A DNA stretch of 64,000 bases, taken from contig MU056434.1 in assembly GCA_013239625.1 (NCBI GenBank), positions 682,001-746,000 on the forward strand, given 5' to 3'. This DNA comes from Lama guanicoe (taxonomy: Eukaryota). Position 1 is the stretch's first letter; each line of letters opens with the position of its first letter. Both the position numbers and the translations under genes were made by a program. The notes beneath the pieces were generated by a model. It saw nothing but the letters and a program-made list of their open reading frames with translations. It was not told the DNA's origin and did no database searches. Of the stretch, positions 18,161 through 27,859 are shown one piece after another.

Positions 18161-18559
18161 GCATTTGAGTGCCCACATGGGACCCTGCGCAGGGCCCCGA
18201 GGGAGAAGCCAAGGCAGCGGCCCCGTTGGCGTTGGCGCCCAGGAAGGGCCGACGTCTCAGTGCCATCCAGCCCTTGCTGCCTCCAGCCCGCAGCTGGACC
18301 ATTCCGCTGCCAGTCCAAGCCGAGCCTCGGTCTTAAGGACTGTAAAGTGGTCTCATCTTAGTTCTCACCTCGCCACGGGCCGGTGCGGCGAAATGCAGGT
18401 CTTGTCTTCAGTCTGTGTCCCAGGCGGAGGGGCGGACCGCAAAGTCCAGGTCCCAGCCGCGCACCGCAACCTAAGGAGGCTGACCCCGAGTGGCGCCCGA
18501 CCCTGGGCAGCGCCCAGCCCTCCTGGCCCGCGCGTGTGGGGGCCCAGCCGGGCCTCCTA

Positions 18560-18623
18560 CCTCGCACACATGGAGGCTCGGCCGGCAGGGGGAGCGAGGC
18601 AGAAGGGAGTCCAGCCGGTCCAG
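18560..18623 (+). other. TBX1: TBX1 non-coding exon 1 (5' boundary approximate)
   Basis: GGCCGGCAGGGGGAGCGAGG...CCAG followed by a strong donor gtgagg at 18624, inside a CpG island. Resembles the human TBX1 5'UTR exon as recalled. Confidence 0.6.
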
Positions 18624-21425
18624 GTGAGGAAGGAAGGCTTCCTACTCAGGCGGCGGCACGCGCGGACGGGGTGTGTGCGACACGGGACCACCTGGCACGC
18701 GCTCCCTGTGGGCACGGGCACCAGGGTTAGGGCAGGGGCAGGCGGCGAGGAGCCCAGTGGAGCAGCCTCCAGGAGGGACCAAGGAGTGCACCCCCAGAGG
18801 TGGGGGAAGCAGCGACACCCAGGCCAGGCCGGGCTGGAGACTCAGCCTTGCACTTCGGGCCCCTTTGGGCCCCTGCAGTTGGGTTCCAGCAGGGCGCGGG
18901 CATTGACCTAAGGTCCTGGTTCTGCTATCCCTCGGGTGAGTATCTGCAGTGGGTGGAGCAGGGCCGCCGTCAGGCAGGGCTGTCTGTGTGGGGGGCGGGA
19001 GGTCCTGACCTCTTCCAGCGTGCTCTCACCAGAGCTTGCCCACCAGATAGAGTGCCTTCTGTTTCTGCACTTTTTCCCTACCCAGCCTGGCTGCCCAGGT
19101 CCCAGCTCAGGCACTAAGGGGTTAATGAGGGGCTGAGAGGTCTGCCCCACCCCACCCCCACCCCGCTCCTGTCCACCTCAGACTCAGAGGGCCCAGGATC
19201 TCCGGACAGCAGCCAGAGACCCAGGAGGCTCACCTGGAGTATCCAGAAGCTCCAGGATTTTTCACTTTCACTTCTTTCTCCTCAATATTGGTTTCACCGG
19301 TGGACTCCACATCTGCCTTCACGTGTTCGCCCAAGTACACACGAAAATCTCCCCAGGTGCACAGGACACCACCACCACCAGCACCCCCACGTGCCGGGAC
19401 AGCACGCATCCCAGGTAGCACACAACATGCACCCCACAGCCACCTGCAGGGTGGATGCAGACCAGCAACAGGTACTCCTGGTGGCCGCCCTGCACACCTC
19501 TTTGGGTACAGACCACCAGCACTGGGCTCACCTCCTGCAGCTCCACCATGACCCACTCCCACCTACTACCCCCAGCTCCACCCAGCTCTCCTGGACCCTG
19601 CGCAGCTCCAACCTGGGGTTCTAGAGGCAGAGGAGCAGGGACCTGGCTGGTCCCAGGATGGCACTCCTCCCTGGGCCTGTCCCTGGGTGCCACAGATCGC
19701 TGTCACTGTCACAGATCCAGACGGCCACTCAGGCCCGGGGCGTACCCTGGCAACAGCTCCTCTTTCCCTGCCCAGTCCACAAAGCAGCAGCTGTGGCCTG
19801 GGGGTGGGGCAGGGGCTCACTGCACATGAGGTGACCCACGCCCACCCCTTCACACAGCAGGACCCCCATACTCACCTGACTCCACTCCAGCCTCGGACTC
19901 TTTACTGGACCCTAGGCCCGGGAGCCAGGCACTTCCTGCGGGAGCCCACTCCCAGGTCCCCAGTTCCTGGGCCTTCCTGCCCAAAAGCAAGCACCCCCTC
20001 GGCCAGGGGTCTGAGGCCCTGGGTTGTAAAAACCCTGAGAGAGGCTGCTGCCTCCCATCTAGATCCAGGCAATAGCAGGCGAAAACCTACGAGAGGCTTT
20101 GGAGTGGAGGCCTAACTTCCAGAGCTTCAGCGCAGGGCCAGAGAGGATCCTGGGAGCAGGGAGGCTTGGAGCCCCACTGGGGAGACTCTGGATGGCAAGG
20201 CCAAGGATGCCCTGAACTGGGCAGAGGAGGCCCAGAGGCAGGAGGTCGGGGAGGCACAGGCCAAGTCAGGCCCTAGCATCCTGGTTGCCTGGGCCTGGAG
20301 GCCAGAGGCCTTGCTCTGCCTGGCCTAACTGGGCAACAGGGCCTTTCCAGGCAGGCAGGCTGGCGGGCCGGGTGGGTGGTGAGCGAGGGGCAGTACACGA
20401 CCCGGCCAGCGGCCTGAATTCCTCCGACGTGTCCTTCGCTCTCTCGGCCAGTCCAGGCCCCGCCCCCGGCCCTCCCTGCGCCCCGGCCGGTGCGTGGGGA
20501 GGTCGGAGGAGCGGGCACTGCCCACCCTCCGGATGTATAAGCGTCCTGGCCAGAGGCGGGCGGTGCGCGCGAGGGTGCGCGTGACGCTGGGGCTCCTGGG
20601 CTGCGCGGCCTGGGCGGCGTCCCTCTGCTCAGGGTCCCCAGCCAGTTAGCTGACCAACTGGGGCTGGGGGGTGTTTGCTGGGCTGGGTCCTGTCCCTGGG
20701 CGCCGAGGAAAGGACGACGCTGTGGCCCTGGGGCCGTCCGCCTGTGGCCAGTGCTGGAGCCCAGACTGCCCTCTCCTCACCCAGGTGCAGGGGCAGCCGG
20801 GGAGAAGGAGGCGGGAGGAGCCGAGGGCAGGGGCAGGGCTGGGCCCCGAGGCCCCATGGAGCTTCCTCAGTGCCCCGCTGCTGTGGGATGGGGCTGGGAG
20901 TTCCTGGTGTCGCCACCTCCCCTCCGGGGGCTGTAGAAGCTGAGGGCTTCGCTGTACAGAGGGAACCCCGGCCTCGGCAGGAGCAGCAGGAGGTTCAAGG
21001 GGTGCTGGTCATGGAGGCCCCTGGGAGCAAAGGCGAGGGGCCCGGAGCTTGAAAAGCAGGAGGGCCGACACGCCCAGGGCTCTCCACCCGCCTGGGCCCC
21101 CTTGGCTGCCACCGGCCCAGAGTAGGGGGCCGTGACGCCACAATCCCCTGGGCCCAGGGCCGTGGTTGTGAGTGGCACCGCGGGCCCCCGCCCCCGGGGC
21201 CCGTGGGCTGGGCCGGCCTTGGTGGGGCTGGGTGCACGCAGTCGGAGGCGGCGCCGGCCAGGCCGCCAGGCGCCTATGGACGCGCGGAGCCCGCTGTCTC
21301 CCCGGGCCAGCGCGTTCAGCATTGCCTCTCTGGTTGCAGGAGAGACCGCAGAGCGCACCTCTCGCCTGGGCCCTGGGTCCTCTAACTGGGTGAAGCTTGG
21401 CCGGCTGCTGGGATCCCCGGCCGGG

Positions 21426-21459
21426 ATGCACTTCAGCACTGTCACCAGGGACATGGAAG
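21426..21459 (+). CDS. TBX1: TBX1 coding exon MHFSTVTRDME(+1 nt); exon probably starts at 21340 after the acceptor ttgcag
   Basis: gggATGCACTTCAGCACTGTCACCAGGGACATGGAAG|gtgag; matches the classical TBX1 N-terminus. Confidence 0.92.
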
Positions 21460-21689
21460 GTGAGCCTCCCTGCTGAGTGAACTCAGATCCTCTCGCCAGA
21501 CCCCCTGCCCCTGCTGCGGTGGGGCCCAAGCAAAGAGGGTTGGCAGGGTCCGGGCGGAGAGTGGGTAGAGGGAGCACTGGTGGGATGGGGCTTCCAGCTT
21601 GGACTCTGGGGCGGAGAGGAAGGGTGGGCAGGATACCCCCTCCAGCCTGGGGACCCCAACGGAGAGACCCACACCCAGCTAGACGCAGG

Positions 21690-22621: not shown

Positions 22622-22929
<308 letters not shown>

Positions 22930-24618
22930 TAGCTCTGCGGTCCCGGGTCCAGCGTCAGCCGCTAAGCGCACGGGCCGAGTGGACGGCCAGGGCCGGGAGA
23001 CTGGCTACCAGGGTGCAGCCGCAGTCCCAGGACTCTGGCCGCCCAATGTGCGGCTGGCTCCGCTCACCCGGCCCTCCCAGGGGCCTCGCCAACCAGGCGG
23101 CTCCCTGTGGATCCCAGCTTCTCAAAGGAAACTCCTTGCTTTGGTTCCCTAGTTCAGTCCATCCGGGATAGATAGAGGTGCAGCCGGTCCATGGTCTGGA
23201 GCGTTGTAGCATAGAGTTAAGCCCCTTAAAAACTGCTGTTCTCGGTAAAGTTGCTACCCAGCTTTCTCAGGCCTGCGTTTCGGGCGACTGTGGGGCCTGG
23301 CTCTGCCGCCCTGGCCGCCGCCTTCAATTGGCCTGTGTTTGTTTTAAGGGCCCAGAGAGAAGGGGAACAAGTTTTGCGATGCAACCGATTTGACCAGCAG
23401 ACAATGGCGGGTGCCGATCTGTGTCTAATGTACACAGGAGACACCGGCTCCGAGTCCGCACAGAGGAGGGGATCTCAGGGCCTGTTTGTAGAGCCTTCTC
23501 GTGGTTTCTCTTTCCCTGCCGCGGTGTCCTCCCTGGGGGAGGCTCCAGCTCCAGGTCAGGGGTCTTCTCCAGGCTCTCCTGCTGTTGCCGAGCACACGGC
23601 CTCCCCCACCCCGCTGCCCACAGGACTGTGCCCCAGCCTCTGGCCCAGTCCAGCCCAGCAAGGGCCTTGGTGCAACCAGGCTTGCCCCAGAAGCCTGCAT
23701 TTTGCAGCTCCCTCCTGCCTGTAGAGGGTGGTGGGAGGGTGAGGCAGGACTGGCCAGGAGGCTGGCTCCGTGGCATCTGCTAACTGCCCACTGCCCACAA
23801 GGAGCTGCCTGTGAGGGGTGGCCGTAGGACGGGCAGGTGGGGGCCAAGCCTCATACTGTCCTCCAGGGCCCAGCGGCCAGCACTGCTATGGCATCAGGAC
23901 AGGGCCGGCCCACGGCCAGCGGCCCATGCAGGAGCTTCAGAATATCCTTTCCAGAGCCTGGAACCATCACCAAGTCAGACTCCAGGGGAGGGGAGAGTTG
24001 GGGGACCACGGAGGCAGGAGCCACATCTGCCCTGAGTAGCTGCCTCTTGGGAACTTGCGTGTGTCCCTGAGGAAGGTGGGGAGACCCCGCACTGGGCAGG
24101 AGGTAGGGCCTCAGAGTCAGGGCTGTGGGCTGCAAAGTTTGGCCTCACCAGAGGGGTAGGGCAGCAGCCGCAGACCCAGCCAAAAGGGCGACCTGGACTC
24201 CTCCGAATCGCACAGACGGCCTCGCTTTCACTTTGTTCGAGCCGGGCGCTTAGGCCATTTGCTTAGATCGAGCTGGAGGAGGTTCTGCTGAGGGCTGCGG
24301 AGGATCCCTGGGAACGCTGGGGTCACCGGCTGAGGCTAACTCCGGCCGGGTGGCTGGAATCACCGTGGGTAGTTGCTTGGTGGGGTCTACACAGGCCGAG
24401 GTTGGGGTGTGGAGGCTCAGCGATGGCGCAGAGTGAGCCACTTTTGTGTTTCAGAGAACGGCCAGGGGCTGTCCTGCCGACCCACTGGCCCTGGCTGGGC
24501 AGGGGCCTGGCCGGTTAAGTGGGGAGCAGGAGAGGAGACCAGGCAGGGAGGCCCCGCGCTGGGCGCTGGGCCGGTCGAGGTGAGTGGCCCTGCCCTCCCC
24601 CACCTGCGGTGACCCTAG

Positions 24619-24738
<120 letters not shown>

Positions 24739-25215
24739 TGAGCGCCTCGCTGGCCTGGGAGGAGGCAGTGGGTCCCTGCGTGGTGAGGTGGGCATGGGCA
24801 GGGTGGCCCAAGACCTGAGCGACATGTGATCCTCCCCACTCCCCTAGACCCCAGACACACACTTCCCACAGCAGTTCTGGGGAGCTCCCCTCAGAGGTCA
24901 CTGGGGCTGGGCTCCCCCAGCACAGGCCGGAGACACCTACACACTTGCACGGCCCCTGCCTTTTTCCGTGTCTTCCTCTCCCATGAGGTGGGCGCCTTGT
25001 CCCTCCCCCAGCCCCTGGAAGCTGGGCCCCTGAGCCGGCAGGAAAGGTGGGGTGGCCCAGAGAGATTATGCAGGGCGGGCCTCAGCTGCCCGGACAATTA
25101 ACAGCAATTAATAAGGAGAGCTCGGTCCGCCCCCACACCCTAGGCTGTCGGCCTGGTCAAATCCAGGCTCCGCTGCACTGGCAACACTGGAGGCCAGCTG
25201 GGAGGCCCAGAGTGA

Positions 25216-25791
<576 letters not shown>

Positions 25792-26104
25792 TAGAGGGGT
25801 CATACTTCTTCCCTTCCCCTACTTCTGTTTTTGGCTGGAAGCTTTTTAGCTGGAAAGGGTGGGGCCATGTGTGGGCGGGTGGGGGCCGCAGCCTCTGGAA
25901 TCCAGGCGGAAAGGCTGGTAGCTGCCCCACACAGAGCAGGCATTGCTTCTCCAGGACCTAAGGAAAGAGGGTCCCAGCTCTGCTTGGCCCCTCAGCCTGG
26001 CCTCACTTAGGGAGTTCAGGATTTTGCCGGGTTGTCTAGAAGTTCGCTGCCTGTCCGGACCTCGGCTGGTTTCCTAGCTCAGACCTCGCCACCTTGTCTT
26101 CCAG

Positions 26105-26260
26105 ATTATTCTCAACTCCATGCATAGATACCAGCCACGCTTCCACGTGGTCTACGTGGACCCGCGCAAAGACAGTGAGAAATACGCAGAGGAGAACTTC
26201 AAAACCTTTGTGTTTGAGGAGACGCGCTTCACCGCGGTCACAGCCTACCAGAACCACCGG
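26105..26260 (+). CDS. TBX1: TBX1 T-box exon (156 nt)
   Basis: ttccag|[52 protein letters not shown]|gtgagg. Confidence 0.97.
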
Positions 26261-26786
26261 GTGAGGCCGAGGCCTGGCACAGTCAACACTTCTGGGAAGG
26301 GGTGCAATTTTCAGTTGCTGCCTGGGGGACAGAGGTTCGGTTCCTGTAAAGCCAGCCCAATGGAGCCCCACCCCTGAGGTCCTCGAGCAGCCGATCCCCC
26401 GAGGAGCCCCCTGCCACAGGCAGGACCAGCCTCCTATCAGGCTGACCTCTCGTGTGGCAACTGTCACTGTGGCCTGAAAGTTTGTTTACCAAACCATTCC
26501 GGAAACTCCCCATCAGGGGCCTGATGAGCGGTTTACCCAGATTCCTAGGGCGCCCCTCCACTCCCCACTGCTGCGGCATGGGGGGTGGAAGTGACCACAT
26601 TCCCATCCCAGCTGGGGGAGGGCACAGGGTCTCCATCCTAACCACTGGGGGCAGAAAAGACGGATTCCTTAGCAATAAAGGGGGCTCCCTGGCACCCCTG
26701 TCGAAGGAGAGAGGCACAGCCTCCACTGGGGAGGGAGCAGTTGTGGGCCCGCTGCTTCTTGTTCGCGGATAGTAGAGGGGCCCTAA

Positions 26787-26960
<174 letters not shown>

Positions 26961-26963
26961 TGA

Positions 26964-27859
<896 letters not shown>

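Follow-up and report, generated by a model that had tools for sequence, protein, structure and literature searches.

TBX1, described in print as lacking an eh1 motif, probably exists in forms with and without one: sequence comparison of an upstream start codon and exon conserved between sea anemones and mammals

Functional eh1 motifs have been reported in several T-box transcription factors. According to the respective reports, the eh1 of TBX20 is essential in the mouse heart (PMC10629681) and that of TBX18 accounts for half of the repression exerted by this protein (PMC6071992). Further, the C. elegans Tbx1-subfamily factor MLS-1 is described in PMC3154951 as bearing an N-terminal eh1 which binds the Groucho protein UNC-37 and is needed in vivo. 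TBX1 itself, presented in PMC6176997 as the main gene of the 22q11.2 deletion syndrome, acts as a repressor when RIPPLY3 bridges Groucho/TLE to it (PMC6151064 and PMC6176997). Copley 2005 (PMC1310626) describes TBX1, TBX10 and org-1 as apparently lacking an eh1. How TBX1 might repress is a question left open in this literature, and an eh1-bearing isoform would offer one direct test of it.

The window analyzed here is a stretch of 64,000 nucleotides of DNA from the guanaco (Lama guanicoe), in which tblastn searches with the mouse and human TBX1 proteins place a mammalian TBX1 gene on the plus strand. Its T-box exons are 85-100% identical to those of mouse and human TBX1, which assigns the gene to the Tbx1/10 orthology group, and the blocks matched over the downstream exons lie at 22627-22860, 24640-24738, 25453-25635, 26105-26263, 26865-27149 and 27641-27856. 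The features of the locus considered below are the following:

18580..18625, plus strand: candidate distal non-coding first exon with donor GT at 18624-18625 and a provisional 5' coordinate (AG/GTRAG match, CpG-rich stretch)
21276..21459, plus strand: putative first coding exon of ancestral Tbx1, beginning with the upstream ATG and ending at the phase-1 donor, 61 codons and 1 nt long (sequence; related loci; mouse, rat and human models)
21276..21278, plus strand: upstream start codon in a weak context, with C at -3 and G at +4 (sequence; related loci)
21291..21335, plus strand: eh1 motif (core FSIASLV at 21315-21335) together with the conserved residues leading into it, PLSPRASAFSIASLV (sequence, invariant residues, matrix score)
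21320..21339, plus strand: internal 3' splice site, a pyrimidine tract and AG (21338-21339) inside the eh1 codons, phase 1, splitting codon 22 (sequence; gene models)
21340..21425, plus strand: spacer, coding in the long form and 5' UTR in the spliced forms, without an ATG (pairwise comparison with a related mammalian locus, sequence)
21426..21428, plus strand: internal start codon of the MHFS form, with a purine at -3 (sequence; Met conservation)
21460..21461, plus strand: phase-1 splice donor (GT) common to the long and MHFS forms (sequence; related loci)
22627..27856, plus strand: downstream TBX1 coding exons including the T-box, with approximate limits (tblastn with mouse and human TBX1)

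The ATG at 21276 is the next in frame after an upstream TAG at 21123-21125, and it lies 150 nt upstream of the MHFS ATG at 21426 in the same frame, thereby adding 50 residues; these coordinates, together with those of FSIASLV and the AG at 21338-21339, had been given in a preliminary description of the locus and proved exact on rechecking, and the 50 residues likewise agree with that description. The frame runs open to a donor which joins it to the coding exons, as seen in the sequence, the annotated models and the related loci. As stand-alone evidence, the open frame was rejected, the probability of 50 open codons being 0.40 at the local GC content and that of meeting an in-frame ATG short of the nearest stop upstream being 0.30. 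Because a 50-codon open frame is this common, it is the motif and the conservation of the motif that carry the case for the exon. A search of the animal's own genome with the 61 residues recovered this locus (E 5e-33) and two chance matches containing stops, with no hidden TBX10 copy seen at the limited sensitivity of this search, which did not recover TBX15, TBX18, TBX20 or TBX22 either. A PDB sequence search gave nothing relevant (three chance-level matches), and a bacterial promoter scan of the window, a type of scan not applicable to a mammal, gave 0 sites.

FSIASLV satisfies the eh1 core pattern F-S/T-I/V-x-x-L/I-hydrophobic, and at 32.8 bits it is the top of 97,018 positions in the six frames of the window, with the runner-up at 8.9. 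The training set of the matrix comprised 26 eh1 motifs from T-box proteins outside the Tbx1/10 clade; these motifs have a leave-one-out median of 35.5 and, having been chosen by a regular expression, share their core by construction; the strict regular expression matches twice in 127,996 positions of the window. The earlier assignment of this heptapeptide to eh1 is thus upheld. The N-termini of the two classical mouse proteins score at best -9.0 on the same matrix. Residues A11, A13, F14 and L19 are invariant in all 67 distinct vertebrate 33-mers, and the motif, which lies outside the DNA-binding domain, is conserved in TBX1 orthologues and is also found in five invertebrate Tbx1 records. Two models, of the electric eel and a ray (P0153, P0166), read FRIASLI instead of FSIASLI.

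By analogy with the paralogues TBX20 and TBX18 and with MLS-1, the TBX1 motif likely recruits Groucho/TLE co-repressors directly, and binding of TLE by eh1-bearing TBX1 is considered probable. It could alternatively be envisaged that the long form is made, but that its motif mainly governs turnover or engages a partner other than TLE, so as to tune TBX1 dose more than repression. A 2026 preprint (PMC13308096) describes TLE-linked proteasomal degradation of repressive transcription factors and lists TBX15, TBX18, TBX20 and TBX22 constructs; however, TBX1 is not among the matches in its text, and its motif scores like those of the TLE-binding paralogues. A mainly turnover-related role appears very improbable, and it is in any case compatible with direct recruitment of TLE, the reading preferred here.

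Database records indicate that the segment is already annotated as protein. The 61-residue query retrieved 37 mammalian matches, 35 of them with the motif and with a spacing to MHFS of 50 residues in 32 and 47 in three. A cluster look-up revealed that mouse TBX1 isoform 4 (NP_001360867.1, 529 aa) and rat TBX1 isoform 1 (NP_001402633.1, 530 aa) begin with the segment; both are NP records, which are curated and backed by transcript evidence. Human TBX1 isoform X4 (XP_016884417.1), a predicted record only, also begins with it, and the 61 residues from the window are 75-82% identical to these mouse, rat and human N-termini. The earlier suspicion that such an isoform might already exist in databases was therefore well founded, with the form being curated in mouse and rat and only predicted in human. 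More broadly, a strict regular expression finds the motif in 58 of the best 120 of 784 T-box matches, and a looser one in 98 of 171 vertebrate TBX1 records pooled from the 61-residue search, the cluster look-up and the same best 120 of 784, although predicted-protein databases show open frames only and such figures overstate frame preservation. The motif-bearing vertebrates comprise sharks, rays, bichir, sturgeon, gar, teleosts, coelacanth, amphibians, turtles, alligator, lizard, birds and a marsupial, the remaining records being partial or showing an MHFS start, an MISA start or other upstream sequence.

Beyond vertebrates, the motif is present in Tbx1-like proteins of Patiria, Solemya, Physella, Actinostola and Sanderia (50%-identity representatives). 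These five group within the Tbx1/10 clade, with moderate SH-aLRT support of 80-84 at its base, in a quick tree of 70 rows chosen out of 141 new representatives and named records; in the same tree, eh1 is absent from 14 of 14 other invertebrate-type Tbx1 rows (arthropod-type, including Drosophila simulans) and from 4 of 4 TBX10-like rows. A metagenome scan yielded 30 loci, 13 of them distinct across the match, of which, labelled by similarity only, one is fish-like, one mammalian, one echinoderm-like and the rest cnidarian-like. A phase-1 GT follows x-M-E, as it does at 21460, in 24 of 29 related loci (four of the others are spliced and one is at a contig end), and this donor, in phase 1, is also present in the echinoderm-like locus. 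Whether the locus is of fish, mammal, cnidarian or echinoderm type, eh1 and spacer form one contiguous exon; an intron between motif and spacer in non-mammals, entertained as a candidate, was rejected on this ground for the fish, cnidarian-like and echinoderm-like loci. Additionally, in two spliced loci an intronless ORF of 442 aa joins the eh1 exon to a TBX1-like T-box, with scores of 818-820 for TBX1, 655-657 for TBX18-like and 591-594 for TBX20-like proteins.

The same start, motif and donor across the related loci point to one old exon. The preliminary description had regarded the segment as a hidden extension, that is, an addition to the classical protein, a reading that does not hold: since start, motif and phase-1 donor recur in DNA of fish, of echinoderm-like and of cnidarian-like type, and TBX1 models between sharks and mammals carry them too, 21276-21459 is more aptly seen as the first coding exon that Tbx1 had ancestrally, the eh1-less forms being the derived ones.

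Several further observations concern this exon in other lineages. Three cnidarian-like contigs each carry two differing Tbx1-like eh1 exons 6-11 kb apart (L012/L031, L014/L023, L019/L027), likely a tandem duplicate Tbx1 pair. Patiria miniata also has an eh1-less model, in which a different first exon is connected downstream of the M-E donor (P0313 versus P0184/P0314), so that omission of eh1 may have arisen repeatedly. The exon-end peptide T-R/K-D/E-M-E (21447-21459 in the window) is kept from cnidarian-like loci to mammals, and a resembling M-E-A-C occurs in arthropod-type records without eh1.

Pairwise comparisons with two of the metagenome loci allow the selective regime to be gauged. Codons 1-21 show a pN of 0.022 and a pS of 0.112 against the mammalian locus (L005; 1 and 2 changes), and 0.173 and 0.66 against the fish locus (L004), where 11 of 19 changes fall at third positions and five of six eh1 core codons are identical; these are two comparisons with few changes, and they agree with the protein data. 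The 150 nt contain no indel, as against two 1-nt indels in the upstream 300 nt and five indels in the first 150 intron bases. The spacer, likewise free of indels, evolves at a neutral-like rate against the mammalian locus (pN 0.161, pS 0.179). Hence, the frame-preservation check proposed earlier came out in favor of the exon, with an uninterrupted frame, a conserved ATG and pN below pS in codons 1-21 against both mammal and fish, and coding constraint on the segment is supported at the level of sequence.

The identity of five of six core codons to the fish locus also hints at nucleotide-level constraint. Together with the weak context of the first ATG, the predicted status of the human form and the neutral-like spacer, it might be taken to mean that the mammalian long form is vestigial or negligible, with the segment being retained chiefly for its function in splice acceptance and as part of a promoter. 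This is unlikely, given that codons 1-13, although located before the pyrimidine tract, show conservation at the amino acid level, that the changes relative to fish are mostly at third positions, that the 150 nt lack frameshifts whereas the flanks have 1-nt indels, and that curated long records exist in mouse and rat. The frame, the motif, the exon limits, their deep conservation and their annotation are direct observations, and coding use of the segment in mammals is very likely.

The eh1 codons also harbor a pyrimidine tract and an AG, placed inside a coding exon and used by other gene models in mammals. With 12 pyrimidines among the 17 upstream bases, a simple measure on which 13 of 232 AGs in 18625-21425 do as well, the AG at 21338-21339 ranks first among AGs after 21000, and it occurs at this place in both mammalian DNAs, i.e., the window and L005. 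The fish locus has no AG at codons 21/22 (codon 21 is TCG), and shows a phase-1 CAG 6 nt downstream with 12 of 17 pyrimidines; the notion of an AG at one fixed place across jawed vertebrates failed on this one fish DNA. In gene models, some of them ab initio, all 13 records in which other sequence precedes MHxS rejoin at residue 22 (judged by eye, with alanine runs blurring four), as do 8 of 15 in a second record set, the other seven starting at a nearby Met. Models rejoining at this residue are found in mammals (P0036, P0037, P0118, P0171, P0389) as well as in a shark, frog, caecilian and bird context, and long and rejoined models coexist in five species (Engystomops, Eleutherodactylus, Cygnus, Anser and Oxyura). 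Several rejoined models alter residue 22 as a phase-1 split codon would, the clearest being that of Engystomops, in which one upstream exon is joined either at residue 22 (Ala to Thr) or at the next exon. Further, residues 21/22 fit NCA/G in 50 of 51 distinct motifs versus 6 of 39 controls, a contrast which is inflated by relatedness. An internal acceptor is thus well supported in mammals and, perhaps at a shifted position, probable in other vertebrates.

The earlier proposal that splicing from a distal exon 1 deletes the eh1 is borne out insofar as gene models use the acceptor, but more routes than a single distal exon appear to exist: additional upstream exons, a downstream MISAV-type start and possibly leaky scanning. 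The candidate distal donor at 18624 is the only perfect AG/GTRAG in 18300-21339 and lies in a CpG-rich stretch; the candidate exon at 18580..18625 resembles, we presume, the human TBX1 first exon. An ATG at 18570, 54 nt before this donor, would be out of frame with TBX1 once spliced and could be a uORF if transcribed. Additional conserved upstream segments serve as exons in mammalian models joining at residue 22: that of a bovid (P0389) matches the window at 20206-20232, with a GT at 20245, and those of a bat, fox, yak, langur and tenrec match at about 20.5-20.8 kb, where a CpG-rich region contains GC boxes and a TATA-like box. These matches suggest that at least two upstream promoters feed the acceptor. 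Separately, models of birds, fish, sharks and amphibians (P0069, P0073, P0139, P0144 and others) point to two next-exon acceptors 17 codons apart, which give DMEAISSPW and DMEAFT forms; the corresponding stretch of the window reads N.

Conservation of the two start codons bears on which protein is made from an mRNA containing the whole exon. The first ATG has a C at -3 in the window, L005 and the fish L004, all three sharing the same four upstream bases, and a Pro precedes the first Met in all 15 records that extend upstream in frame. All 78 distinct long N-termini of vertebrates retain the internal MHFS Met; in 60 of them the residue before it is G, K, A, T or N, which places a purine at -3, in 17 it is R and in one Q. 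As the first ATG context is weak and the second Met is kept, leaky scanning from a long mRNA is plausible. For the species itself, 20 of 24 listed sequencing runs contain part of 21100-21500 as sequence words. Eight runs recorded as RNA (2 studies), with those of guessed or unknown kind (X1, X4-X6, X13-X20) and four unindexed raw-read runs left out of the count, hold 0.51-0.54 of the 39 words of this interval, a share which pre-mRNA, DNA or a related species could also give; the spliced exon alone would give 0.24 (P of 20 or more ~1e-4) and 21240-21459 would give 0.51. This share hints at transcripts that include the ATG and motif. In the PMC11317171 supplement, which deals with translated human 5' UTRs, TBX1 is not listed.

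These data could also be read to mean that the long form is the main TBX1 protein, a TLE-dependent repressor, with the eh1-less reference forms being minor or 5'-incomplete and no regulated switch existing. In keeping with this, the eh1 exon is the sole N-terminus seen in cnidarian and mollusc records, eh1 is the commonest class among vertebrate models (51 of 112 in a second set, besides the above 98 of 171), and the RNA runs exceed, in word share only, what the spliced exon alone would give. Nevertheless, this appears improbable in light of the curated eh1-less TBX1 proteins of mouse, rat, human and Xenopus, the unfailing retention of the internal Met, and a MISA-type start conserved from sharks to mammals.

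We favor, as the likely explanation, that the eh1 exon recruits TLE and that jawed vertebrates also make eh1-less TBX1 from the same locus through upstream exons spliced into the acceptor behind the motif. A promoter close upstream of 21276 would yield an mRNA with the whole exon and a protein 50 residues longer, whose eh1 would dock on the TLE WD40 domain as in TBX15, TBX18, TBX20 and MLS-1, making T-box-bound TBX1 a direct repressor. Transcripts from upstream exons would be spliced in at 21340 and so lack both the first ATG and the motif, with translation starting at MHFS, while a third, MISAV-type start would bypass the exon altogether. Additionally, the weak first ATG followed by a stronger second one may let the long mRNA yield both proteins. 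The proportion of TBX1 that acts as a repressor would then depend on promoter use, and promoter choice, the acceptor and the weak first ATG would together likely determine the ratio of eh1-bearing to eh1-less protein. Within the class of outcomes in which the segment is coding, a regulated long-to-short ratio is rather likely; tissue-specific switching is less so than the core explanation. A bolder proposition, which is possible but doubtful, is that TBX1 has been a switchable repressor since the jawed-vertebrate ancestor, with promoter choice, an acceptor in the eh1 codons and a conserved weak start tuning the eh1 share. The eh1 form would then be the missing link for repression and histone deacetylation in mesoderm without Ripply3, and variants in the 64-nt stretch could alter both protein and splicing in 22q11-like heart disease.

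Some practical consequences would follow. The assays in PMC6151064 used the eh1-less cDNA NM_080647.1, and assays with such a cDNA could miss the predicted eh1 activity. Variant screens may likewise overlook 21 conserved codons, and the 64-nt stretch is now read as intronic against the eh1-less reference transcripts.

The long TBX1 isoform is at odds with two published statements that TBX1 has no eh1. Neither a description of an eh1 in this isoform nor an experiment on the isoform was found in the searched literature, in which subscription papers are mostly not covered and motifs given only in figures are unsearchable, so that absence from print is unproven; the very same N-terminus is known in the form of database entries (NP_001360867.1, NP_001402633.1 and XP_016884417.1) and has apparently gone unrecognized as eh1-bearing. 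With respect to the known systems, TBX15, TBX18, TBX20 and TBX22 belong to the same subfamily and share with TBX1 the same near-N-terminal eh1 and the same lead-in, which reads LSSRANAFSIAALM in the record P0311, taken by us to be TBX20-like. Unlike in these paralogues, the TBX1 motif is droppable on account of the internal acceptor behind it and the conserved internal Met, and the studied TBX1 reference proteins are without it. MLS-1 differs from TBX1 in being closer to Tbx15/18/22 according to PMC3154951, whose available text describes no eh1-less MLS-1 isoform. The RIPPLY3 route is indirect and depends on a WRPW adaptor which in mouse is restricted to pharyngeal endoderm, whereas eh1-bearing TBX1 would need no adaptor. 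The locus thus apparently combines a known motif and a known family in a new arrangement.
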